From an uncultured delta proteobacterium (lineage in GTDB: Bacteria; Myxococcota_A; Polyangia; Fen-1088): 64,000 bases of DNA. The notes below the pieces were generated by a model. The model saw only the letters and a program-made list of their open reading frames with translations. It did no database searches and was not told where the DNA came from. Location: positions 2,112,001 through 2,176,000 of the forward strand of contig CAVYGB010000002.1 of NCBI GenBank assembly GCA_963767925.1, read 5' to 3'. Both the position numbers and the translations under genes were made by a program. Shown here piece by piece: positions 3,895 to 51,469 of the stretch (position 1 is its first letter; every line of letters starts with the position of its first letter).

Positions 3895-5259
3895 TCAGCT
3901 CAGCTGCTGATTAATCTGCCGGGCAACATGCGCGCTGAGGGCCAGCGTGGTCAGGGTAGGATTGGCCGCGCCGGCCCGCGGGAAGAGGCAGGGACCGACC
4001 ACGAACACGCCTGGGAGCTGGCGAAGCTCGCCCGTCACGTCGACCAGCTCACCACCCAGCGGAAGCGTGCACGCGTCGTGATCGATGGTTCCCAGGGGGC
4101 ACCGATACCCGACCGCCACGCCCGGTTCGGCCAGCGCCATCTTCATTGCTGCGTCGAAGTCGGGCGGGCCGCCCGCGCTCCCCTCTCCACCAAGCGGGAT
4201 CCCGAGCGTGCCGCTCAGCTCGAGCAGCCAGCTGCGCTGATCTGCCAGGATCCTTTCGTCGGCAGCCGTGGGCTCGACCGAAACGACGAGGTCCTGCGCC
4301 GGTGAAACGAAGCGGACGGTGGCCGTCGGTCCGGGGAGTTGCTCGCCCATGGTCCAGGCGTCCACGACAGTCTGCTCGCCAATGCGATGGACCTCCAGGA
4401 AGCGGTTGATCCGGTGCGGTTGGTCCCGGCCCAGCAGGATCGAGGCTTCCTCGTTGCCGGGCGACGCGCTCCCTTCTGGACGCACGCAGACCCATCCCTG
4501 TGAGTGGTGGTCCACGATGGGATACGGCCGTTCGATCCCGGTGAGCCATGACACCAGCCGCGCATTTTCGAGGGCGCCGGTGGCCAGCACCACCGCTGCC
4601 GCGGACACCCGTTCCATCCCCGCGGGCCCTTCCAGCGTCGCCTCGAATCCCCCGATTCGCCCCGTGAGGCCTCTGAGACTCCGGCTGGACAGGACCGGGA
4701 TGGACCCGATCTCCTCGAGCGGCGAATACGCCGTCCAGAATCCGCCGTCCAGCGGGCGAGCCGCCCGTGGCGTGGGCGTCGCTCCTTCCAGGCCCAGCTC
4801 CCGCAGGCGCCGCAGCCAGGAGATCTCGCTGGCGTTGCGGGGCGCGGCCAGAGGGCGTCCCGACCACGCCGTCAGACGTCGTTCCACGCCGGCGTAACCG
4901 CCCGGGCTCTCCGGATCGCCGTCTTGCAGGGCCTGCTGTAACTCCCGGGGCCAGTCCGCGAGAGCGAAACCTTCCAGTCGTAGAACGATGCCCCGCCAGT
5001 AGAGGGATCGGCCCCCCACTCTCAACCTCGACCCTGCCCGAGGTCCATAGTGGATGGCGCTCGCGTCGCGCTGCCATGGGCGAAAGTGTGGATCGTGGCC
5101 GGGATCCATCCACGACCGCGTCGCTTCGGCCGCCGCGATGTGCGCAGTGGGTGCGGCTGGACCGAGGTCGCTGATCAGGACGGGCACCCCGCGCCGGCGC
5201 AATTCGCCGGCGACGGCTGCCCCGCTCATGCCGCAGCCCATGACCAGCACCGGATTCAT
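3895..5259 (-). CDS. FAD-dependent GMC-family oxidoreductase
   Basis: N-terminal VLVMGCGMSG Rossmann motif, VGGRSLYW, LATGALENARL, C-terminal FPRAGAANPTLTTLAL. Confidence 0.85.
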   Translation of the reverse strand: MNPVLVMGCGMSGAAVAGELRRRGVPVLISDLGPAAPTAHIAAAEATRSWMDPGHDPHFRPWQRDASAIHYGPRAGSRLRVGGRSLYWRGIVLRLEGFALADWPRELQQALQDGDPESPGGYAGVERRLTAWSGRPLAAPRNASEISWLRRLRELGLEGATPTPRAARPLDGGFWTAYSPLEEIGSIPVLSSRSLRGLTGRIGGFEATLEGPAGMERVSAAAVVLATGALENARLVSWLTGIERPYPIVDHHSQGWVCVRPEGSASPGNEEASILLGRDQPHRINRFLEVHRIGEQTVVDAWTMGEQLPGPTATVRFVSPAQDLVVSVEPTAADERILADQRSWLLELSGTLGIPLGGEGSAGGPPDFDAAMKMALAEPGVAVGYRCPLGTIDHDACTLPLGGELVDVTGELRQLPGVFVVGPCLFPRAGAANPTLTTLALSAHVARQINQQLS

Positions 5260-34953: not shown

Positions 34954-36819
34954 ATGAGCTCTGCCGAGGGCGGCAAGCCATCGGTGGAGACGCCCTGGAC
35001 GAGCCGCTTGCGAAACGGCCTGGGTCAGATCGTCCTGGCCATCAGTCTCATGTGGAAAGCGGCGCCCTGGGGGACGTTGCTCTCCATCGTTCTGGTCGTC
35101 CTCTCAGGAGCACTTCAGCCCGCCAGTGCCTACGTCGGAAAGCTGATCGTCGATGCGGTGCTCGACGCGCAGCAGGCCGCACATGTCCCGGGAGCCATCC
35201 AGCGGGCGCTCGAATTCGTCCTGCTGGAACTGGGCCTGCTCCTGAGCGTGACGCTGCTCGACCGATCTCTGGGGCTGGTACGTACGATGGTCGGCGCGCG
35301 CCTGACCCTCGACCTCGCCACGAAGATCCTGAAGAAGGCTCTCCTCCTGGAGTTGAGGCAGTTCGAAGATCCAGTGTTCTACGACCTGTTGACCCGGGCC
35401 CGGCGCGAGGCCACCGGCAGGCCGCTCGGCCTGTTACAGCGCGCCTTCGGTCTGCTCAAGAACGGGCTCGTACTCGCTGGGTACCTCACGCTGCTGACGA
35501 CCTTCTCCGCATGGGCGACCCTGGCGGTGCTCGTCGCGAGCGTCCCCGCATTCCTGGCGGAGGCGCACTTTTCCAGGAAGACCTACCTCATCCGGAACTC
35601 TCGTTCGGAGGAAAACCGGCGCCTCAACTACCTGGAGAAGGTGTTGACCGAGGAGGAATACGTCAAAGAGGTCAAGCTGTTCGGTCTGGGATCCTATCTG
35701 CTCGGGCTGCACCGGGACCTGTCCGTGAAGTTTCTTCGCGAGGATCGGGACTTGCACTTGCGCTCTGCCGGCTGGGGGTACCTGCTCTCGGCCGCTGCCT
35801 CGCTGGCCTTTTATGGCTGCTACGTGGTGGTCGTGATCTCGACGGTCCAGGGAAGACTTTCTCTGGGTGAGATGACGCTCTATCTGGTGGCCTTCCGTCA
35901 GGCGCAGGAGAACTTCCGGGGACTCCTGGCGGGGGTGGGGGGCATGTACGAGGACAACCTCTACCTGACGAACCTGTTCGAGTTCCTGGCCATCCCTCCC
36001 GGCCACCCCGTGGCGACGAGCAATCTTGCCCTCCTTCCGGCAGTCGCGTCGCGGGCACCAGCGGATGGAGGGATCCGCTTCGAGCAGGTCTCATTCAAGC
36101 ACCCGGGGTCTGACAGATACGCCGTCCGCGACATCGACCTGGTCGTGCCGCCCGGCCAGAGTCTGGCCCTGGTGGGGGAAAACGGGGCCGGCAAGACCAC
36201 CATCATCAAGCTGCTCACGCGCCTCTACTCACCCACCGAGGGGAGGATCCTGCTCGATGGCCGGGACCTGCGCGACTGGGACGAGGTCGAGCTACGCAGC
36301 CGTATCGGAGTCATTTTTCAGGACTTCAACCAATACCAGTTCCGGGTGCGGGAGAACATCGCCGTGGGCAGCATTGCCCGAAGAGATGACGATCTGCGCG
36401 TGAAGCGGGCGATGGAGGAAGGAGGCGCCCGGGCGGTGGTGGCTGGCCTTCCCCATGGATTGGACACTCAGCTCGGACGCAAGTTTCGGGACGGCGTCGG
36501 GCTCTCGGGAGGGCAATGGCAAAAGATTGCCCTCGCCCGCGCGTTCATGCGCCAGGAGGCCGACATCCTGATCCTGGACGAACCCACCGCAGCGCTGGAT
36601 GCTCTGGCCGAACACGCCATCTTCGACCGGTTTCGCGAGCTCACCCGGGGCCGGACTGCCATCATCGTGTCGCACCGGTTCCCCACCGTCCGCATGGCCG
36701 ACCGGATCGTAGTCGTGCGTGAAGGAATGATCGCCGAGAACGGCAGCCACGGAGATCTGTTGAAGGCAGGCGGTCGCTACGCCGAGCTGTTCGAGCTGCA
36801 GGCGCAGGGTTATCGCTGA
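34954..36819 (+). CDS. ABC exporter, fused TMD and NBD
   Basis: GENGAGKT, LSGGQWQKIALAR, LILDEPT, SHRFPTVRMAD. Confidence 0.95.
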   Translation: MSSAEGGKPSVETPWTSRLRNGLGQIVLAISLMWKAAPWGTLLSIVLVVLSGALQPASAYVGKLIVDAVLDAQQAAHVPGAIQRALEFVLLELGLLLSVTLLDRSLGLVRTMVGARLTLDLATKILKKALLLELRQFEDPVFYDLLTRARREATGRPLGLLQRAFGLLKNGLVLAGYLTLLTTFSAWATLAVLVASVPAFLAEAHFSRKTYLIRNSRSEENRRLNYLEKVLTEEEYVKEVKLFGLGSYLLGLHRDLSVKFLREDRDLHLRSAGWGYLLSAAASLAFYGCYVVVVISTVQGRLSLGEMTLYLVAFRQAQENFRGLLAGVGGMYEDNLYLTNLFEFLAIPPGHPVATSNLALLPAVASRAPADGGIRFEQVSFKHPGSDRYAVRDIDLVVPPGQSLALVGENGAGKTTIIKLLTRLYSPTEGRILLDGRDLRDWDEVELRSRIGVIFQDFNQYQFRVRENIAVGSIARRDDDLRVKRAMEEGGARAVVAGLPHGLDTQLGRKFRDGVGLSGGQWQKIALARAFMRQEADILILDEPTAALDALAEHAIFDRFRELTRGRTAIIVSHRFPTVRMADRIVVVREGMIAENGSHGDLLKAGGRYAELFELQAQGYR

Positions 36820-42526: not shown

Positions 42527-42645
42527 AAGGCCTGGCGCCGAGGGGCCGCGCGCGCTCGCTCGCGACTCGCGCCCCAAGATACGCGGCGGGCTGACCAGGG
42601 GACGTAGCATTGTGCGGCGGCTCGGATGCCGATCGCCGGATCATA

Positions 42646-43338
42646 ATGCCGAGAATGGATCGGCCCAGCAGGCCCGGCACCGAGGGAGACGACTGCAGCG
42701 CGGTCATTCTGCTTGCCCGTCAAATCCTCGGCGATCACGCCAAGGCGGTGGCGGATCTGGCAGGTTCCGTTGGCGCCCGGTTCGAGTTTGCGGTCGACCT
42801 CATCGCAGGCTGCGCGAATCGGCTAGTCCTGACCGGCGTGGGCAAGTCTGGCGTCGTGGCCAGACAGATCTCAGCCACCTTCGTCCGTACCGGCATGCCT
42901 AGCCTGTTCGTGCATCCGACCGATGCGGCTCATGGTGATCTGGGGGCCATCGCGGGCGACGATCTCGTGCTCGCCGTCTCCAGCTCGGGGCGGACGGAGG
43001 AGCTCCTCAGCCTGGTGCCCCACCTGCGCAGGCGATGCCGGGCCATCCTGGCGATTGTTGGCGACGAAAGGTCGCCGCTCGGAAGGGAAGCTGATCTTGC
43101 GCTCGAGGTGGCGGTCGCGGATGACGTCATGGTGGCGGCGCCCATGGCCTCCAGCGTGGCGACGCTGGCCCTCGCCGATGCTCTGGCGGTCTCGGTCATG
43201 CAACGACGTGCGTTGCCCAGAGAGGTGCTGGCCCGGAACCATCCGGGCGGGTCGCGCGGCGCTCTGGCCCGTCTCGCTGCAGAACTGGAGACGGCGCCTG
43301 GCCCGCCCAGCCGTGGGGCGGGAGGAGCGGCGGGTTGA
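42646..43338 (+). CDS. kpsF: Arabinose-5-phosphate isomerase (KpsF/GutQ), SIS domain only
   Basis: TGVGKSG, HPTDAAHGDLG, SSSGRTEE, NHPGG; no CBS pair. Confidence 0.85.
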   Translation: MPRMDRPSRPGTEGDDCSAVILLARQILGDHAKAVADLAGSVGARFEFAVDLIAGCANRLVLTGVGKSGVVARQISATFVRTGMPSLFVHPTDAAHGDLGAIAGDDLVLAVSSSGRTEELLSLVPHLRRRCRAILAIVGDERSPLGREADLALEVAVADDVMVAAPMASSVATLALADALAVSVMQRRALPREVLARNHPGGSRGALARLAAELETAPGPPSRGAGGAAG

Positions 43339-44207
43339 GCGTCGCGGGTGGCAGCGACTGGCCCCCGAGCGAGCCAGCCGCCCGCGTACGGGTGGGGGCG
43401 GTCGAGCTGAGCAACACCGGCCCACTGGCCATCATAGGAGGACTCAACGTCCTGGAGGACCAGGGCATGGTCAACGACGTTGCCAGCGCCTTCGTGGAGG
43501 AGACGCGGGCGGTCGGCCTACCCTTCATCTTCAAAGCCTCCTTCGACAAGGCCAACCGGAGCGCACCCGAGAGTCCCCGCGGCCCGGGACTGGCGGGGGG
43601 GCTGCACGTTCTCGCCGAAGTCAGGGCGCGCTTCCGCGTGCCGGTGCTCACGGACGTACACGAGGCTGGGCAGTGCCGGCCGGTGGCCGAGGTCGCGGAC
43701 GCGCTTCAAATCCCGGCGTTCCTCAGCCGCCAGACCGACCTCCTGCTCGCCGCGGCGGCCACGGGCCGTCCCCTGCACGTGAAGAAGATGCAGATGGCGG
43801 CGCCCTGGGACCTGGCTCACGTCGTGCGAAAGTGCCTGCAAGGGGGCAACGACCAGATCCTGCTCTGTGAGCGGGGGACGTTCTTCGGCTACGGGAACCT
43901 GGTGGTCGACCCCCTGGCGTTTCCAGAGCTCAAGAAGATCGGCTGCCCGGTGACCTTCGATGTTACCCACGCGCTGCAGCTCCCGGGAGCGAGGGGCTCC
44001 GCCGCCGGAGGACGGGCCGAACACACCGCTTCTCTGGCCCTGGCCGGGGTCTCGCAGGGCATCGCGGGCCTGTTCCTGGAGGTTCACCCGGAGCCGTCAC
44101 AGGCCCTGTGCGACGGGCCGTCGGCGCTGCCGCTGGCACAACTTTCCACACTTCTGCGCAAGGTCAAGCTGCTGGACAACTTGGTCAAGGGCGCCCTGTC
44201 CAAATGA
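43335..44207 (+). CDS. kdsA: KDO-8-phosphate synthase
   Basis: FKASFDKANRS, TDVHE, QIPAFLSRQTDLL, CERG, FDVTHALQ, FLEVHP, CDGP. Confidence 0.95.
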   Translation: MSVAGGSDWPPSEPAARVRVGAVELSNTGPLAIIGGLNVLEDQGMVNDVASAFVEETRAVGLPFIFKASFDKANRSAPESPRGPGLAGGLHVLAEVRARFRVPVLTDVHEAGQCRPVAEVADALQIPAFLSRQTDLLLAAAATGRPLHVKKMQMAAPWDLAHVVRKCLQGGNDQILLCERGTFFGYGNLVVDPLAFPELKKIGCPVTFDVTHALQLPGARGSAAGGRAEHTASLALAGVSQGIAGLFLEVHPEPSQALCDGPSALPLAQLSTLLRKVKLLDNLVKGALSK

Positions 44208-44241
44208 CCACTCGCTCGAAGCGGTCGTCACGGTGAAGAAC

Positions 44242-44949
44242 ATGGAAGGGAACCTGCCGCGCGTCTTCATTGGCTACGACAGCAAGCAGGACATCGCCTA
44301 CCACGTCCTACGGTATTCGATCCTCAGGCACACCTCCCAACCTCTCGACGTGAGGCCGATCGTGCTTTCGGAGCTGCAGTTTCCGCGTCAGCCCGACCCG
44401 CTGGCCTCGACGGAGTTCACCTACACGCGGTTCCTGGTCCCCTACCTGTGCGGCTTCTCCGGGCGCGCGCTGTTCATGGACTCCGACATGTTGTGTCTGG
44501 GTGATCTGAGCGAGTTGTTCCGGCTCGGCCTCGATCCCTGCTGGATCCGGGTAGTCAAGCACGACCACCGCCCTCTCGACGGCGTGAAGATGGACGGCCG
44601 CGCTCAACGGAGCTACCCGCGCAAGAACTGGTCGAGCCTCATGCTGATGGACTGCGAGAAGCTCACTGCCTGGAGCTACGAGAACGTGCTGGGAAAGTCA
44701 GGTGCCTGGCTGCACCGCTTCGAGCCGATCCCGGACGAGCGACTGGGGGAGCTCCCTTCAGAATGGAACGTCCTCGACCGGTACGACCATCATACGAAGA
44801 TGATCCACTACACGATGGGAGGGCCCTGGCTGCCCAACTATCGCAATCATCCCTACGGTGACATCTGGTTTCAGTACCGGGGCGAGGCAATCCGTGGGGG
44901 CGCGGTCACAACCGGTAGCCAAACGACGCGGGCCCAGTTGCATGGCTGA
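44242..44949 (+). CDS. GT8-like glycosyltransferase, copy 1
   Basis: VFIGYDS, STEFTYTRFLVP, FMDSDML, YPRKNWSS, IHYTMGGPW. Confidence 0.85.
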   Translation: MEGNLPRVFIGYDSKQDIAYHVLRYSILRHTSQPLDVRPIVLSELQFPRQPDPLASTEFTYTRFLVPYLCGFSGRALFMDSDMLCLGDLSELFRLGLDPCWIRVVKHDHRPLDGVKMDGRAQRSYPRKNWSSLMLMDCEKLTAWSYENVLGKSGAWLHRFEPIPDERLGELPSEWNVLDRYDHHTKMIHYTMGGPWLPNYRNHPYGDIWFQYRGEAIRGGAVTTGSQTTRAQLHG

Positions 44950-45652
44950 GCGAAAATTCTCTCCGGAGAGGAATCTGGAGCGCATCGCCGCTCTGCGCGG
45001 GCGCTTCGCAGGAGAACAATGCGTGGTGCTCTGCACCGGACCCTCGGTTCGGGACGCCGATTTGTCACTCATCGAGAAGCACCCGTTCGTCATGGGCGTG
45101 AATGGTTGCTATTTGCTCCGCAACAATTTGCGCTTCTACTTCGTCTCGAACCCATGGTTCGTTCACAACAACTCCGCCCGGATCGCCCAGATCGATACTG
45201 AGCGCATCTTCGTTCCCTGGTCATCTGCTGACGACTGTCTAGCCGCTGACATCGACGAGGAACGGCTGATCTTCTACGAGCTGAAGGACTATCTCATCAC
45301 CACGGAGATCACGACCGACCTCACCAGCCGGTTGCCACACGGCCCCCCCGTATTGCTGGCCATCGTGCTGCCCGCCCTAGTGTGGTGTGGGTTCCAGGAG
45401 GTCTTGCTGATCGGAGCAGACTTCCCGGTGCACGGCTACTCGCGCTTTCACACCGGGAATCGGGACGCACCCCGGCACGGGGCGAAGCCGCTCCACTTCT
45501 ACGAGGCCGAGATGGAGATAGGTCGATTTCGGGCATCCCTCTGGGCCCAGTACCTCCGCGAGAACCATCCCACCATGCGGGTGCTGAACTGTTCGCCGCG
45601 CTCCGAGCTCGAGGCGTTCGAGCGTGCCGATCTCCGCCAGGCGGTCCGGTGA
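44942..45652 (+). CDS. MAF/DUF115-like (sialyl/ulosonyl-transferase-like) protein
   Basis: CVVLCTGPSV, MGVNG, GFQEVLLIGADF, VLNCSPRS. Confidence 0.6.
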   Translation: MAERKFSPERNLERIAALRGRFAGEQCVVLCTGPSVRDADLSLIEKHPFVMGVNGCYLLRNNLRFYFVSNPWFVHNNSARIAQIDTERIFVPWSSADDCLAADIDEERLIFYELKDYLITTEITTDLTSRLPHGPPVLLAIVLPALVWCGFQEVLLIGADFPVHGYSRFHTGNRDAPRHGAKPLHFYEAEMEIGRFRASLWAQYLRENHPTMRVLNCSPRSELEAFERADLRQAVR

Positions 45653-46374
45653 GCAATCGTCTGACCAAGCTGGCGGTCATTCCTGCACGCATGGCATCCG
45701 TGCGGTTGCCTGGCAAGCCGCTGTTGCCCATCTCCGGAACCCCGATGCTGGAACGGGTGTACCGTCAGGCAGCGCTCTGCCGGCAACTCGACCGGGTGGT
45801 GGTGGCCACCGAGGACGAGGAGATCGTGTCGTTCTGCCGCGCGCGGGACATACCCGTGGAGCTCACGGCCCGTCACCCTTCGGGGACCGACCGCGTGGTC
45901 GAGCTCTCCGAGCGCCTGAAGGCCGACCTCTTCGTCAACATACAAGGTGATCAGCCCATGCTGGATCCTCGGCAAGTGGACATCCTCTTGAGCGTCTTCC
46001 AGCGCCGCCCGGAGGCGTCCGTGTCGACGCTGGTGGCTCCCCTGGCCGACGACAAGGCGTTCTCGCCCCATGTCGTCAAGGTCGTGCTGGCGTCGGATGG
46101 GCGGGCGCTGTATTTCTCCCGAGCCCTGGTACCCCATGGCGCGACTGCCCGGCGCTGGCAACACATTGGCCTCTATGCGTACACGGCTGCCGCTCTGGCG
46201 ACCTTCAAGCGGAAGGGTCCCTCCCTGCTCGAGGGGGTCGAGAGCCTCGAACAACTCCGCTTTCTGGAGGCCGGTGTCCCCATCCACACCGCCCCCACCG
46301 AGATCGTCACGCCGAGCGTCGACACGCAGGATGATCTCAGGTTCGTGGAGCGACAGCTGGAGACAGAGGCCTGA
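45649..46374 (+). CDS. kdsB: CMP-Kdo synthetase
   Basis: IPARMASVRLPGKPL, SGTDR, NIQGDQP, ALYFSR, HIGLYAY, ESLEQLRFL. Confidence 0.95.
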   Translation: MSNRLTKLAVIPARMASVRLPGKPLLPISGTPMLERVYRQAALCRQLDRVVVATEDEEIVSFCRARDIPVELTARHPSGTDRVVELSERLKADLFVNIQGDQPMLDPRQVDILLSVFQRRPEASVSTLVAPLADDKAFSPHVVKVVLASDGRALYFSRALVPHGATARRWQHIGLYAYTAAALATFKRKGPSLLEGVESLEQLRFLEAGVPIHTAPTEIVTPSVDTQDDLRFVERQLETEA

Positions 46375-47330
46375 TGGCGTCGCGCCGCTCTCGAGCCTGC
46401 ATCGTGACCACGGTTCGCGATCCCGGACCCTCGCTGGTGTCCTTCCTGCAGTACCACCGACGAATCGGGTTCGATCACATCTTCGTATTCTTCGACGACC
46501 CCCACGATCCCTGGCTAGCGGTCGCTCGGAGCCATCCGGACGTGACGGCGCTGCCGTGTACCCCTGAGTTGAGGCAGCAGCAACGGGCCCGAGTCGAGGG
46601 GTTCGAGGCTCAGGCTCCGCTGCTCGACAGCGACGTGATGGCTCGGCAGGTTCTCAACGCCGACCACGCCCTCTGGCTGGCGCGGGAGCGCGGCGCTGAC
46701 TGGCTCTTGCACCTGGACGTCGATGAGCTCTTCCTGGCGGTGGAGTCTGTGGACGCGCATTTCGCGAGCATCCCCGACCATGTTGGGCAGGCCCGCTACT
46801 TGAATTTCGAAGCTGCACCGCAGGTCATGGAGATGGCGGACCACTTCCGCAGTGTCACGCTGTTCAAGGTCCACCCCGCGCTTTGCTCTCCCGGGGCTCT
46901 AGAAGGATGGCTGTCCGCGACCGGCCGCCGTTTTTTCTTCACGGCCTATGACAATGGCAAGGCGGCGGTCCGCGTGGTCCCTGGGGCTGCCGCCTGGGGC
47001 GTGCACCAGTTTGCGGGCCCGCCCGGCCTGCAGACCGTGCAGCTTGGATACCCGTGCGTCCTGCACTACGTGAACTGCGGCTTCGAGAACTACCAGCGAA
47101 AGTACCGCTTCATTCGGGAGTTCGCCGAGACGTGGTTCGATCGCTGGCCCCCGCTGCCGTTTCTGCGCGATTCGCGCGAGCTTGCCCTGAATGGAGACGC
47201 CGATGCTCAGCGACAGTTCTATCGCGAGAGCGTGATCTATTCGGATGAGCATGAGGTTCAAGACATGCTCGCGGCTGGGCTGGCAGTGAAGATCGGCCTG
47301 CCCAAAGCGTTGCTCGAGCAGCCCACTTGA
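46374..47330 (+). CDS. GT2-like glycosyltransferase (Glyco_tranf_2_4)
   Basis: YHRRIGFDHIFVFFDD, WLLHLDVDEL, GKAAVR, VLHY. Confidence 0.85.
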   Translation: MASRRSRACIVTTVRDPGPSLVSFLQYHRRIGFDHIFVFFDDPHDPWLAVARSHPDVTALPCTPELRQQQRARVEGFEAQAPLLDSDVMARQVLNADHALWLARERGADWLLHLDVDELFLAVESVDAHFASIPDHVGQARYLNFEAAPQVMEMADHFRSVTLFKVHPALCSPGALEGWLSATGRRFFFTAYDNGKAAVRVVPGAAAWGVHQFAGPPGLQTVQLGYPCVLHYVNCGFENYQRKYRFIREFAETWFDRWPPLPFLRDSRELALNGDADAQRQFYRESVIYSDEHEVQDMLAAGLAVKIGLPKALLEQPT

Positions 47331-47342
47331 TGGAAAATTGAC

Positions 47343-48041
47343 ATGGAAGCCACCAGCCCACCGCGCATCTTCATCGGTTACGACAGCCGGCAAGATATTG
47401 CCTATCAGGTCCTCCGGCACTCGATACTCAAACACACCTCCCGTCCCCTCGACATCCGCCCTCTCGTCCTGGCCGATCTGAAGTTCTCGCGCCCCATCGA
47501 TCCTCTGGCTTCCACCGAGTTCACGTATACCCGCTTCCTGGTTCCTTACCTGTGCGGCTACTCGGGGCGGGCGCTCTTCATGGACTCGGACATGCTTTGC
47601 CTGAGCGACCTGAGCGGGCTCTTCGAGCTGAGCATCGAGCCCTACTGGCTGCGGGTGGTCAAACACGACCAGCAGGCGGTCGACGGTGTGAAGATGAACG
47701 GTCGGCCGCAGCGCAACTACCCGCGCAAGAACTGGTCCAGTCTCATGCTCATGGATTGCACCAAGCTGACGGCCTGGAGCTACCAGAACGTGCTCAGCCA
47801 GTCGGGGGCCTGGCTGCACCGCTTCGAGCCAATCCCCGATGATCGGATCGGAGAGCTCCCGTCGGTGTGGAATGTGCTGGATCGTCAGGATCCGGACACC
47901 AAGATGATCCACTACACCGAGGGCGGGCCCTGGTTGCCCAATTACCGGAATCATCCGTTCGGGGCGATATGGTTCCAGTATCGAGACGAGGTGCTGGCGG
48001 TCGCCGGACAGGGGGACGCTTCATCGGTGGCGGGCGGGTGA
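47343..48041 (+). CDS. GT8-like glycosyltransferase, copy 2
   Basis: Close paralog of 44242-44949. Confidence 0.85.
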   Translation: MEATSPPRIFIGYDSRQDIAYQVLRHSILKHTSRPLDIRPLVLADLKFSRPIDPLASTEFTYTRFLVPYLCGYSGRALFMDSDMLCLSDLSGLFELSIEPYWLRVVKHDQQAVDGVKMNGRPQRNYPRKNWSSLMLMDCTKLTAWSYQNVLSQSGAWLHRFEPIPDDRIGELPSVWNVLDRQDPDTKMIHYTEGGPWLPNYRNHPFGAIWFQYRDEVLAVAGQGDASSVAGG

Positions 48042-48045
48042 CGGC

Positions 48046-49317
48046 GTGGACCAGAACCTGCCCGCAAACGTGCTGGAGCGGTCGCCGATCGCCCTGACCG
48101 GCGACCCGGACCGGCCAGAGCCGCCGGCTGCCCCGCCCCCGCCGCCCCCGCAGATCCGGGAGTTGCAGGATCTGGCCAACGTCATCGAACACCGCTGGCA
48201 GAGAGTCCATCGGGACGAGCGGAGGTTCACCGAGATCGCTCTCGAAGCCCTGGCTCGTTGCCCGGTCCACCGGCTGGACCTCGGCCAGCTCTTGGCCTGG
48301 GCCCTGACAGGGCCGCGGCTACCGACGCAGGCCGATCCCGACTCCAGCTTCGGCGAGCCATCTTTGACAGTGGTCAATCGGGACGGCTTCCAGGTCGATC
48401 TCCTTTTCTGGCTCGACGGGACCACCACCATCCACCAGCACCAGTTCTCCGGCGCTTTCCGGGTCGTGATGGGCTCCAGTCTTCACAGTGAGTTCTCCTT
48501 CACGCAACGCCAGCGAGTCAGCTCCCGTCTGTCTCTCGGGGACCTCACCTTCGACCGGGCCGAGCTGCTCGAGGAGGGGGATACGCGACCGATCCACGCC
48601 GGCGATCGCCTCATCCATTCCGTGTTTCATCTGGACCGGCCCTCCATGACGCTGGTCGTCCGCACCCGGCACGAGGTGGACGCGCTTCCTCAATTCGACT
48701 ACCTGCCGCCCGGGATAGGTATCGATCCGTCCCTCCGACCCACCAGCCTGCGAAAGCGGATCCAGCTCCTGCGCACGATGATGCGGCTCGATCATCCGGC
48801 CGTCGCCGAAGGGGTGCAGGGGCTATTCAAGGCGGCCGACCTGGAGACCGCCGCTCTGCTGCTCAGGTGCCCGGACATCTTCTCCGCGTTCGACGCCCGC
48901 AAGGAGCTTCTCGAGCAAAGAGGCCGTTTCGGGAGCGCGATGGACTGGCTGGTTCCGGCATATGACCATGCCCAGCGGATGAACGCGTTGGCGTTGTGGC
49001 GGCGAGTCCTGCGGTCGGTCGACCTGCGCCTGTTTCTCGGACTGACGCTCAATGTCCCCTCCCGCTCCGCGATCCTGAGCCTCATTCAGCAACGCTACGG
49101 TGGAAACCCGGTCGAGCTCGTGATGGGCTGGCTCAGGCAACTGGCCGAGCTGCAGCGGGGTGTTACCGAGGTCCAGCCGCTGATCGAGGGCGAGCTGACG
49201 GAAGCGGACCTGCAATCGCTGCAGAGTCTGCTGGATCGTCCGCGCGGCGCCTCGCTGGATCCCGACTCCCTGGGAAACCTCGGGCGCTCTCCGTTGCTCC
49301 GCCCCTTGCTGGCCTGA
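48046..49317 (+). CDS. Cupin/cysteine-dioxygenase-like protein with helical C-terminal domain
   Basis: TTIHQHQFSGAF and LIHSVFH give an HxH...H metal triad. Confidence 0.6.
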   Translation: MDQNLPANVLERSPIALTGDPDRPEPPAAPPPPPPQIRELQDLANVIEHRWQRVHRDERRFTEIALEALARCPVHRLDLGQLLAWALTGPRLPTQADPDSSFGEPSLTVVNRDGFQVDLLFWLDGTTTIHQHQFSGAFRVVMGSSLHSEFSFTQRQRVSSRLSLGDLTFDRAELLEEGDTRPIHAGDRLIHSVFHLDRPSMTLVVRTRHEVDALPQFDYLPPGIGIDPSLRPTSLRKRIQLLRTMMRLDHPAVAEGVQGLFKAADLETAALLLRCPDIFSAFDARKELLEQRGRFGSAMDWLVPAYDHAQRMNALALWRRVLRSVDLRLFLGLTLNVPSRSAILSLIQQRYGGNPVELVMGWLRQLAELQRGVTEVQPLIEGELTEADLQSLQSLLDRPRGASLDPDSLGNLGRSPLLRPLLA

Positions 49318-49355
49318 CCGCCTCCTGGGTGAGGCCGTCGGTTAGTTGGGGCGCG

Positions 49356-49377
49356 CAGCCTCCGGTCAAGGAGGCTG
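49356..49377. terminator. GC-rich hairpin between convergent genes
   Basis: CAGCCTCC-GGTCAA-GGAGGCTG; no U-tract. Confidence 0.4.
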
Positions 49378-49507
49378 GCGCTCCCCGCGTCGCGGTGCTA
49401 CTGGGCGCCGAGGCGCCCGGTCGAAGACACCCAGAACAGGGATGACCGGCGACGTGCGGCCAGCTGTGTCCGGGCTCTCATCATGGGGTCAACCCCTTCG
49501 CGTGGTG

Positions 49508-49678
49508 CTACCAGCCGCAGACGCTGGAGCAAGGCCCCATGGTCTCAGCCAGCGGAGTGCCGCTGCTGATACCCTTGGCCAGGTCGAGCAGGCGCTGCCG
49601 GAGTTCGGCACGCTGGTCGTCCGAAAGACCGGGGAGGGCGGCGCCCCGCGCGAGGTTGCTGTCGTTGCTGTCAGACAT
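49508..49678 (-). CDS. Small 56-aa peptide, RiPP-precursor-like (not in ORF track)
   Basis: MSDSNDSNLARGAALPGLSDDQRAELRQRLLDLAKGISSGTPLAETMGPCSSVCGW*; RBS AAAGGA 8 nt upstream. Confidence 0.7.
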   Translation of the reverse strand: MSDSNDSNLARGAALPGLSDDQRAELRQRLLDLAKGISSGTPLAETMGPCSSVCGW

Positions 49679-49716
49679 GTTTTCGATCCTTTCTTGCCTA
49701 CAAATAGGCGTTCTCG

Positions 49717-49746
49717 ACCGTAGCGGCGGTTGCGGTTTATTGTCAA
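49717..49746 (-). promoter_or_regulatory. Sigma70-like promoter for the 56-aa ORF
   Basis: Minus strand TTGACA, 18-bp spacer, TACGGT, in an AT-richer gap. Confidence 0.6.
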
Positions 49747-49951
49747 CGTCGATGCAGATGCCACGGCGACGTGCGGAACGCGCCGAATAGTGCGGGATAA
49801 CAAAGATTGCGGGTATTTAGGAAAGGATTCTTCGCTGGGCAATCAAGGCGCCGCAATTGGCAGCAGCACGGATCGACGAGGACCGCGACTCTCGCTGAGG
49901 CTTCTCGGGAGGAGCGCCGAGGGTGACGTGGGGTCCCTGGGAGCTGAGGCT

Positions 49952-50299
49952 TCAGGCAGTCTGCTCCCGTCGCTTGGTCATTCCAGTCAGCTCGTCCTGA
50001 TAGGTAACAAAGGCGGAATAGTTCATCGCGGCGAGGCGGTGCCTGGTGAACGGCACCATCTGTCCAGGGTCGTTGCTGCCCAGCGTCCGGCTGTTGCTGT
50101 GCCAATGTCTTTTTCACGTCGGCGCGGTGGGCGGCGGAAATTCGTCGAGCAACTTGCCGCTCGATCCTTCGGAAATAACACCGTCGATGGTGACGTGCGG
50201 AAGGGGCGAAGCCGTGCGGTAGCGCTCGCTCAGCGTTCCTGTCAGAGACTGAAGGACGGCCGTGTCGAGCCAGAAGCCGTCGCCAAAGGTGGGGGTCAT
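49952..50299 (-). pseudogene. Decayed 2OG-Fe(II) oxygenase (N-terminal part)
   Basis: ASPLPHVTIDG..LLDEFPPP, TGA at a likely Trp position, then QMVPFTRH..MNYSAFV..ELTG. Confidence 0.65.
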
Positions 50300-50419
50300 T
50301 TGGGCCGCCCGCGAATCAGGACACGCTTCCGTTGGTCATGTATCACAGCCGCCCGGAGGTGCGCTCGCCGCGGTTTGCGGCAGGAAGTTCAGCGCCGCCC
50401 GCTTGTAGATTCACGAAGC

Positions 50420-51469
50420 TTGAGCGCCGCGGCCGCCTGGTGGTCCCACACAGAGAACGTGCACATTGCGAGCTACCGGCTGCGCTGCCTCCGTATCGTC
50501 ACGGCTCTGCGCGTACGCGGCGTTGAGGTCGGGCTTTATCGTGCGGCCGACGAAGTCCCGCCCCGCTGCCTGGTACTCACGAAGCGCTATGATCCAGGCT
50601 CCATGCAGGAGGCGATCTCTCTGCGCAAGCGCGCCGGGACGCGGCTCGTGCTCGACCTGTGTGACAACCATTTCAATTTCGAAAGCGACGACCCTGCGCT
50701 ACACCTAAGGGCCGCGACGCTGCGCGAGGCGGTGCGCGCGGTGGATCAAGTCGTGGCGTCGTCGCCAGCACTGGCCGAAGTCATAGAGTCCGAGTGCGGC
50801 GCGGGGGTGCCGGTCGGCGTGATTCCCGACGTGGCCGAGCCGCCGTTCGTGCCGACGCGCCTCGCGCGCTCGGAGCATCCGATAGCCGAGCAGCAGCTGT
50901 GGCGCCTGGCAATGAGCTTGCGGCGCAGTGGGATACCGCGGGAGCGCCGGCTACTCTGGTTCGGGAACCATGGTTCCGTCGGGGTGAACGGTGGCATGAC
51001 CGATCTCCTTCGCATCTGTGAGGCCCTGCATGATGCCCACTGCGTGCGGCCGCTATCACTGACGGTCATCAGCAACGATGAGGCGAAGTTCCAGGCCGTC
51101 ACCCAGGGCTGGGCACTGCCGGCGTATTACCTGCCGTGGCACCCCCAGACCTTCTCCCGGATTGCGCGCCTGCACAGTGCGGTCGTGGTTCCCATCAGCG
51201 TGAACCCCTTCACCCAGTGCAAGACCAACAACCGGCCCGCCACGGGGTTTCTGCACGGCCTCAACGTCGTCGCCGACGCCATCCCCAGCTACCAGGAGTT
51301 CTCCGACTGCGCCGTGCTCGACGACTGGAGGCGCGGGCTGGGCGACTACCTCGACGATTTGCCCCGTCGGACGGCGGACGTAGCTACCGGACAGCGGCTG
51401 CTCGCGCAACGTTACAGCCTCGACGTCGTGGCCGCCCAGTGGCACGCGTTGGTAGCCCCGGACGCCTAG
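50420..51469 (+). CDS. Putative GT-B glycosyltransferase
   Basis: ASYRLRC, LDLCDNHF, LLWFGNHG, KTNNRP, GLNVVADAIPSY; TTG start assumed. Confidence 0.7.
   Translation: MSAAAAWWSHTENVHIASYRLRCLRIVTALRVRGVEVGLYRAADEVPPRCLVLTKRYDPGSMQEAISLRKRAGTRLVLDLCDNHFNFESDDPALHLRAATLREAVRAVDQVVASSPALAEVIESECGAGVPVGVIPDVAEPPFVPTRLARSEHPIAEQQLWRLAMSLRRSGIPRERRLLWFGNHGSVGVNGGMTDLLRICEALHDAHCVRPLSLTVISNDEAKFQAVTQGWALPAYYLPWHPQTFSRIARLHSAVVVPISVNPFTQCKTNNRPATGFLHGLNVVADAIPSYQEFSDCAVLDDWRRGLGDYLDDLPRRTADVATGQRLLAQRYSLDVVAAQWHALVAPDA

Follow-up and report, generated by a model that had tools for sequence, protein, structure and literature searches.

The stretch of DNA studied here, 64,000 nucleotides from an uncultured delta proteobacterium (contig CAVYGB010000002.1, positions 2,112,001 to 2,176,000 of the forward strand; hereafter the window, numbered from its first letter), carries a minus-strand reading frame for a peptide of 56 residues and, facing it, a plus-strand gene for a 423-residue protein with a cupin domain. 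We propose that the small frame encodes the precursor of a rare and undescribed family of peptides made by the ribosome and modified after translation (RiPPs), and that the cupin protein is its most likely tailoring enzyme, oxidising the core of the peptide. We give this reading a probability of about one half. Judged from its sequence, the 56-residue frame is a real protein under selection, and the leader and core conservation pattern of a RiPP precursor is well supported. The cupin protein has, in its predicted structure, the fold of a thiol dioxygenase and a three-histidine metal site on the cupin barrel. Comparison of gene neighbourhoods supports the view that RiPP-type clusters are the usual setting of the cupin family taken as a whole. 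An earlier note, made from the letters of this DNA alone, had singled out the same pair of genes; its claims are taken up below where the results bear on them.

The peptide family and its leader and core

A word-indexed search for close homologs of the peptide gave five cluster representatives (54-55 residues, 75-81% identity), whose clusters added three members, making eight close homologs of 54-56 residues and 75-82% identity. When 1.84 billion representatives were searched with a profile, nine matches reached E ≤ 0.001: one close homolog (P0112), four distant ones (P0121, P0122, P0123 and P0124) and four proteins of 250-1452 residues. Together with a reading frame in another genome (locus L017), this gives five distant homologs. 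Profile searches of 401 genomes of the class and 401 of the phylum found the peptide in genome G000 alone, and a search of 138 genomes of the family of G401 found it in G401 alone, with no further convincing member; the weak matches in these searches fall inside long open frames. Look-alike frames with the pattern AET..C..C.W in three cupin loci (L031, L056 and L133) were rejected as antisense frames inside a conserved gene of 452-491 codons.

Conservation along the peptide is sharply uneven. Among the nine close sequences, only 6 of the 36 columns of leader residues 12-47 vary and the mean pairwise identity is 0.95, whereas in the tail that follows T46-M47 the length changes (8-10 residues), 8 of 10 columns vary and identity drops to 0.40. 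The Fisher test of this contrast in column variation gives p = 3.8e-4, a value that overstates it because the sequences are kin. The earlier note's description of the peptide as precursor-like is well borne out by this difference. The variable tail is patterned nonetheless. Proline is the second residue after ETM in 10/10 sequences; among the close members all nine tails have a cysteine, eight have at least two, spaced CxxxC or CxC, and all nine end in Trp. The T46-M47 pair is invariant across 14 members of the family, and the distant homologs keep the leader motif and the ETM junction and all contain Trp.

The frame itself has the marks of a coding sequence. Its GC content at the three codon positions (0.65/0.56/0.84) is coding-like and matches that of real genes in this region. 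Over the 26 codons that can be aligned between the window and L017, differences number 10, 6 and 18 at the first, second and third positions, and synonymous differences affect 11 of the 15 codons whose residues are identical. The family is matched above cut-off by no Pfam or NCBIfam model, and neither Nif11 nor any other leader model is among the matches. Soil DNA from four runs added no usable variants: run X1 has one identical piece (49638-49803), which covers the first 41 bases of the frame and the promoter region, and the other pieces over the frame are fragments of about 40 bases with 7 other letters (49577-49614 in X2; 49551-49590 and 49579-49618 in X3).

The translation agrees with the 56 residues read in the earlier note, and the ribosome-binding site that it described is in place (Table 1). 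The same note had proposed a promoter. The letters and the 18-nt spacer are as it gave them, and the -35 hexamer (49741-49746) matches the consensus at six of six bases, but the -10 hexamer (49717-49722) matches at three of six, and for that reason the pair falls outside the sigma-70 rule that we applied (at least four of six bases per hexamer, spacer of 16-18 nt); a scan of 49200-50500 with this rule gave 0 sites. Hairpins do separate the peptide gene from the convergent cupin gene: one stem-loop at 49356-49377, with 100% complementarity between its arms (49356-49363 with 49370-49377), and another at 49400-49421, in a spacer whose overall fold z-score is -1.9. Rfam and tRNA scans of the surroundings of the two genes gave no match.

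Fold and metal site of the cupin protein

Neither Pfam nor NCBIfam places the 423-residue protein in a family. Its homologs in a clustered database (110) are all unnamed, the ESM Atlas gave only unnamed clusters for it, and a PDB sequence-profile search gave nothing meaningful. Our scans recovered 413 relatives from contigs of genomes and 518 from contigs of metagenomes, the latter by an alignment-based scan, a metagenome scan with the single protein having returned none. By the labels of their records, most of the relatives belong to the Acidobacteriota and some to the Myxococcota and Verrucomicrobiota.

In the predicted model (predicted local distance difference test, pLDDT, 86.6), residues 107-226 form a beta-barrel and the chain is helical from residue 233 to the end. 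Foldseek matched residues ~30-230 to 3-mercaptopropionate, cysteine and cysteamine dioxygenases, with a best E of 2.6e-7 (6xb9). VIA, a structure search independent of Foldseek, ranked thiol dioxygenases first: 3-mercaptopropionate dioxygenase (6xb9; Z 15.4, root-mean-square deviation 2.9 over 164 residues), mercaptosuccinate dioxygenase (8vni; Z 15.3), the cysteine dioxygenases (CDO) of B. subtilis (4qm8; Z 15.0) and rat (4ubg; Z 14.7), ergothioneine dioxygenase (Z 12.0), the plant cysteine oxidase PCO4 (6s0p; Z 11.6) and ADO (7lvz; Z 11.0). All other cupins scored 9.5 or less, and the thiol dioxygenases thus stand 1.5 to 6 Z units higher. An hhalign comparison with the profile of four CDO_I proteins, taken from related genomes (probability 68%, E 4.7e-5), pairs H130, H132 and H191 with invariant histidines of those enzymes. 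The alignment stops before their second-sphere H157 and Y159, invariant in all four; the cupin family has H195, R206 and Y219 instead. A CDO_I family search of the protein's own genome at E ≤ 1e-5 gave no match.

The histidine triad of the form HxH...H that the earlier note had read from the sequence is strongly conserved. Among 175 family members, H130 is present in 174, H132, H191 and H195 in all 175, R206 in 174, and Y219 is near-invariant. The same note's helical C-terminal domain is also found in the model. Folded alone, it reaches a pLDDT of 88.1 and resembles nothing in particular: Foldseek gives an E of 1.6 at best, VIA a Z of no more than 7.4 along a 78-residue stretch of helical repeat, and no match resembles a RiPP recognition element (RRE).

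Linkage of the two genes and genomic context

A tblastn match defined the cupin loci, 168 in all: the window and 167 fetched sequences. The earlier note expected small peptides near cupin homologs; the hidden Markov model (HMM) of the peptide does find one near another cupin, that of L017, but only these two of the 168 loci match. L017 is the only other genome in which we found the peptide. There, a gene for a TIGR03975 RiPP radical S-adenosylmethionine (radical-SAM) C-methyltransferase (505 bits, cut-off 281.85) is followed on the same strand, after a gap of 232 nt, by the peptide gene, and the cupin gene diverges from the methyltransferase gene at a distance of 49 bases, which puts peptide and cupin 2.4 kb apart. 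In the window the two genes are convergent and 190 bases apart, and the cupin is the sole candidate for a maturation enzyme beside the peptide. Both genes are rare and lie within 2.4 kb of each other in both carriers, hence their pairing is not chance; it could be block inheritance. In a FastTree phylogeny of 175 cupins, the window and L017 straddle the deepest split of a 10-member clade (support 0.94), in which the only other member with DNA, L097, has flanks of 113 and 490 bases. A cupin with 90% identity (P0002) and a metagenomic peptide (P0116) each occur on 2 contigs, the longest of 35167, which suggests that they share a contig.

The neighbourhoods of the cupin family were compared by extracting frames of at least 30 residues within 3.5 kb of each cupin, clustering those of at least 35 residues and building HMMs of the recurrent neighbours. 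Counts cover the 76 loci flanked by 2.5 kb or more on each side. Proteins with a PqqD domain are the most frequent neighbours (48/76), followed by NTP_transf_5 nucleotidyltransferases (33/76), HPr-kinase-like proteins (32/76), Asn-synthase or lasso-cyclase-like proteins (14/76), a family of ~198 residues that we call cluster 5 (14/76) and lasso-like precursors (12/76). At least one of these six lasso/PqqD-type families lies near the cupin in 59 of the 76 loci. The other 17 include the window, L017, L028 and L089, and some of them hold other RiPP genes, such as the TIGR03975 gene of L017 and, in L028, a gene for a complete LanB dehydratase (E 9e-136). In L207, the full contig of L009 and sister of the window's cupin clade, a Nif11-leader precursor (47 bits, cut-off 32.3) is followed by a maturase-like gene of the radical-SAM/SPASM type, the cupin and a divergent TIGR03975 gene (611 bits).

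Several of these loci are of interest in themselves. The cluster of L207 (1899-10039; G039:C676) is compact and also counts a JmjC protein, an FkbM methyltransferase and a carbamoyltransferase-like gene among its members. In L028 (1635-7206), on a contig labelled Polyangiaceae, the full-length LanB-type dehydratase is accompanied by an unnamed frame of 352 residues directly upstream of the cupin homolog. Upstream of a cluster-5 protein and a cupin homolog, L059 has a frame of 135 residues (4201-4608) with no Pfam or NCBIfam match, in which a LTDDELEIVNGG stretch, a putative double-glycine leader with no family match to support it, precedes a Gly/Asp-rich region. Beside many acidobacterial cupins (L081:4258-4773, L037, L029, L063, L103 and others) lies a protein of ~160-250 residues with an N-terminal PqqD domain, a stretch resembling a twin-arginine signal or transmembrane segment, and a Cys-rich tail; among the 79 matches of the PqqD model the last 45 residues hold 6 cysteines in 42 and 8 in 10. 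This protein may be a leader chaperone fused to its own exported Cys-rich peptide. MauE or thioredoxin genes occur in 18 cupin loci.

Taken together, the precursor pattern of the peptide, the linkage in L017 and the RiPP-type neighbours of the cupin family lend partial support to the earlier note's idea of an undescribed peptide-modification system. What does not hold is its description of the system as minimal and of the cupin as an orphan, because the cupin gene closes a same-strand Kdo (3-deoxy-D-manno-oct-2-ulosonic acid)/glycosyltransferase run (Table 1). Two paralogous short GT8-like genes of this run (44209-44949 and 47343-48041) share the operon with KdsD-, KdsA- and KdsB-like genes; no KdsC was seen in it. 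The HMMs of the recurrent neighbours (PqqD, Asn-synthase-like, lasso-type and others) match none of the frames of at least 40 residues in the 64 kb, and the locus does not qualify as a lasso-peptide cluster.

Upstream of the peptide gene and on its strand, the earlier note saw a decayed 2-oxoglutarate (2OG)-Fe(II) oxygenase. A broken frame is indeed there; its identity as a 2OG oxygenase is putative, since neither piece has a Pfam match and no longer homolog turned up, apart from one weak, contig-truncated match in 41 genomes. Next to it, 50305-50487 on the plus strand shows weak similarity (E ~1e-4 in a tiny database, on which we do not rely) to the conserved core of the cluster-5 proteins, and may be a second gene remnant. 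Elsewhere, cluster-5 proteins lie convergent to cupin homologs, and one of four members tested gave a sub-threshold match to 2OG-FeII_Oxy_2.

Further away, 11 kb from the cupin, the window encodes a 621-residue ATP-binding cassette (ABC) exporter (34954-36819), homologs of which lie beside cupin genes in 13 other loci (44% identity in L172; immediately upstream of the cupin on the same strand in L041 and L142). It may export the same kind of product. The GC content is 62-67% over 6-52 kb and 70-72% beyond 52 kb, while GC at third codon positions rises from ~0.8 to 0.9-0.98 in genes. A same-genus genome (G001, 86% complete) matches an 11-kb query (42-53 kb) only in its first 552 bases. The region around the two genes looks like a large accessory one, possibly acquired.

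Table 1. Positions of the peptide gene, the cupin gene and nearby features in the window.
Feature	Position	Strand	Basis or remark
Two-domain protein of 423 residues, unnamed family	48046..49317	+	no Pfam or NCBIfam family; 110 homologs
Thiol-dioxygenase-like three-His cupin domain, residues ~30-230	48133..48735	+	Foldseek, VIA, hhalign, conservation
Cupin H130	48433-48435	+	
Cupin H132	48439-48441	+	
Cupin H191	48616-48618	+	
Cupin H195	48628-48630	+	
All-helical C-terminal domain, residues 231-423	48736..49314	+	predicted model; no recognisable fold relative
Two GC-rich stem-loops between the convergent genes	49351..49421	.	folding; no T-run
Precursor-like peptide gene, 56 residues	49508..49678	-	translation of the frame; homologs
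Predicted leader, residues 1-47	49538-49678	-	ends with invariant T46-M47
Predicted core GPCSSVCGW, residues 48-56	49511-49537	-	hypervariable tail
Stop codon of the peptide gene	49508-49510	-	
Shine-Dalgarno-like AAAGGA	49687..49692	-	sequence reading; 8 nt upstream of the ATG
Promoter-like TTGACA-N18-TACGGT	49717..49746	-	sequence reading; no call in the consensus scan
Broken reading frame upstream of the peptide gene	49955..50299	-	61-residue frame at 50114-50299 with TGA at 50114-50116; same frame continues
Same-strand run upstream of the cupin: SIS/KdsD-like, KdsA-like, GT8-like, MptE-like (weak), KdsB-like cytidylyltransferase, GT2-like, GT8-like	42610..48041	+	

Proposed mechanism, alternatives and comparison with known systems

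In the reading that we prefer, a conserved helical leader ending in (A)ETM would precede a short, hypervariable, Trp-containing core, which in the subgroup of the window usually has two cysteines and ends in Trp. The cupin protein would be a mononuclear-iron, O2-dependent oxidase acting on a residue of this core, and its helical domain (residues 231-423) might hold the leader. Given the thiol-dioxygenase fold and the presence of cysteine in all nine close cores, a Cys thiol is the probable target in the window. The most likely reaction would then be the conversion of a core thiol to sulfinate (+32 Da), or its oxidative coupling to the C-terminal Trp. The adjoining Kdo/glycosyltransferase genes might glycosylate the product.

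A number of observations weigh against this reading. The Pfam model CDO_I (PF05995) does not match the cupin protein at E ≤ 1, and the hhalign probability is only 68%. The linkage of peptide and cupin rests on two loci with DNA, which share ancestry. The 64 kb contain no leader protease, PqqD/RRE or cyclase. Further points concern the operon of the cupin, the cores of distant peptides and a family of antitoxins, and are best considered with the alternatives to which they lend themselves.

The alternative that survives best, which we consider unlikely, is that the peptide is a genuine RiPP precursor matured by unlinked enzymes, for example a radical-SAM methyltransferase as in L017, and that the cupin serves the Kdo/glycosyltransferase operon or another peptide. 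The cupin gene starts 4 bases after the stop of the GT8-like gene and may belong functionally to that operon. A metagenomic gene call of 399 residues (P0097) joins the start of KdsB, through ~130 residues apparently out of frame, to the first 150 residues of a cupin homolog; a frameshift or an assembly error has probably merged neighbouring genes in this call, so that the adjacency of KdsB and cupin recurs in a relative with a cupin part 61% identical. In L017 the peptide adjoins the TIGR03975 gene, not the cupin, and the radical-SAM enzyme may be the maturase there. Finally, the cores of L017, P0121, P0122, P0123 and P0124 are free of cysteine. The CxxxC-Trp terminus described in the earlier note is thus no family feature in its cysteines, Trp being the only residue common to nearly all cores, and a Cys-directed reaction cannot be the common step of the peptide family: Trp may be the target that all its members share, or the class may be defined by an enzyme other than the cupin. 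Yet, the Kdo/glycosyltransferase genes of the window adjoin none of the 167 other cupin loci, most of which have RiPP-type genes beside the cupin. No homolog of the L017 radical-SAM enzyme lies near the window, the best matches in its own genome being 25-27% identical and on other contigs. And although the gene order has been rearranged, peptide and cupin are still no more than 2.4 kb apart in either genome.

It is improbable that the 56-residue product is instead a small helical regulatory or antitoxin-like protein with a tail that is merely unconstrained. PF09720 (Unstab_antitox) comes just under its cut-off with the window peptide (19.8 against 23.3 bits) and matches six of seven members at E ~5e-4 to 8e-4, through an LSxxQR helix, and TIGR02574 matches at E 0.036. 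But the six members matched by PF09720, all under the cut-off, are near-identical, and the L017 member is unmatched. Downstream of the peptide there is no toxin-sized frame on the same strand, only the 190-nt hairpin spacer before the convergent cupin. The tail, with its fixed proline, cysteines and terminal Trp, is hardly unconstrained, and the peptide of L017 has RiPP enzymes as neighbours.

It is very improbable that the locus is what remains of a larger RiPP cluster in decay, whose lost maturases leave peptide and cupin without a joint product: the broken frame directly upstream of the peptide gene, the lack of a protease, RRE, radical-SAM enzyme or cyclase in the window and the absence of a DNA match for 42.5-53 kb in the 86% complete genome G001 speak for it, but both genes and the cupin metal site are intact, and so is the peptide in 8 more metagenomic relatives, whose cores diversify while the leader stays almost invariant.

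If peptide and cupin are a pair, as we favour, the peptide would be a new precursor family among ribosomal peptide natural products and, more importantly, the cupin a new and widespread family of tailoring enzymes. The cupin family would then give a genome-mining handle on clusters in uncultured soil bacteria, and the two genes a simple test system. A bolder and decidedly tentative version is that the 423-residue protein founds a new class of RiPP maturases, peptide-directed oxidases that combine an iron site of the thiol-dioxygenase type with a helical leader-binding domain, and that were recruited into lasso, lanthipeptide, Nif11/radical-SAM and PqqD-fused Cys-rich clusters of soil bacteria. 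In the window such an enzyme might turn an 'ETM-leader' precursor into a nonapeptide with a Cys sulfinate or a Cys-Trp cross-link, perhaps glycosylated.

Cupin-fold iron enzymes that tailor ribosomal peptides have a precedent in PbsQ/BpmG of biphenomycin-like clusters, encoded next to a B12 radical-SAM enzyme (PMC12257519). PbsQ is characterised in that account as cupin-like and JmjC-related (PMC12257519); unlike the window cupin, it is not thiol-dioxygenase-like and has no added helical domain. A 2024 review of Cys-modifying metalloenzymes lists SbzM and OvoA/EgtB as novel CDO homologs and, in its available text, names no peptide-tailoring one (PMC10989515). Literature searches combining thiol or cysteine dioxygenases with RiPP terms found no peptide-tailoring enzyme of the thiol-dioxygenase type, nor was a description of the 423-residue family found, within a coverage that excludes subscription journals. 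Most acidobacterial cupin loci resemble the gene set of the bsf cluster for a phosphorylated lasso peptide, with its kinase (HPr-kinase-like), nucleotidyltransferase (NTP_transf_5), PqqD and Asn-synthase-type genes (PMC10368454). A cupin is not named in the available description of bsf (PMC10368454), and genes of the bsf type are absent from the window. Clusters of the Nif11/proteusin type with TIGR03975 enzymes offer another comparison: in L017 and L207 the cupin and TIGR03975 genes form a divergent pair, and L207 has a Nif11-leader precursor, but the window lacks such a radical-SAM gene, and neither Nif11 nor any other leader model matches the peptide. With the 'addiction module component' antitoxins of PF09720/TIGR02574 the peptide shares a short helical build and an LSxxxR...L motif; it differs from them in its sub-cut-off scores, the lack of a toxin gene and its patterned hypervariable tail.

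Thiol-dioxygenase chemistry on peptide cysteines is familiar from oxygen sensing in plants and animals, and we know of no case in natural-product biosynthesis. PCO4 and human ADO are enzymes of the thiol-dioxygenase fold that oxidise a cysteine within a polypeptide, and they need it free at the N-terminus. The candidate cysteines of the window lie 1-7 residues from the C-terminus, and the structural match to PCO4 and ADO is weaker than that to the CDO and MDO enzymes. With thiol dioxygenases such as CDO, 3-mercaptopropionate and mercaptosuccinate dioxygenase (CDO_I) the window cupin shares the fold, N-terminal helices included, and the three-histidine site. It departs from the CDO_I enzymes in giving no Pfam score, in its extra helical domain of 190 residues and in its invariant H195 and R206, and its family departs from thiol dioxygenases in the company it keeps, which is that of peptide-maturation genes rather than of sulfur metabolism.

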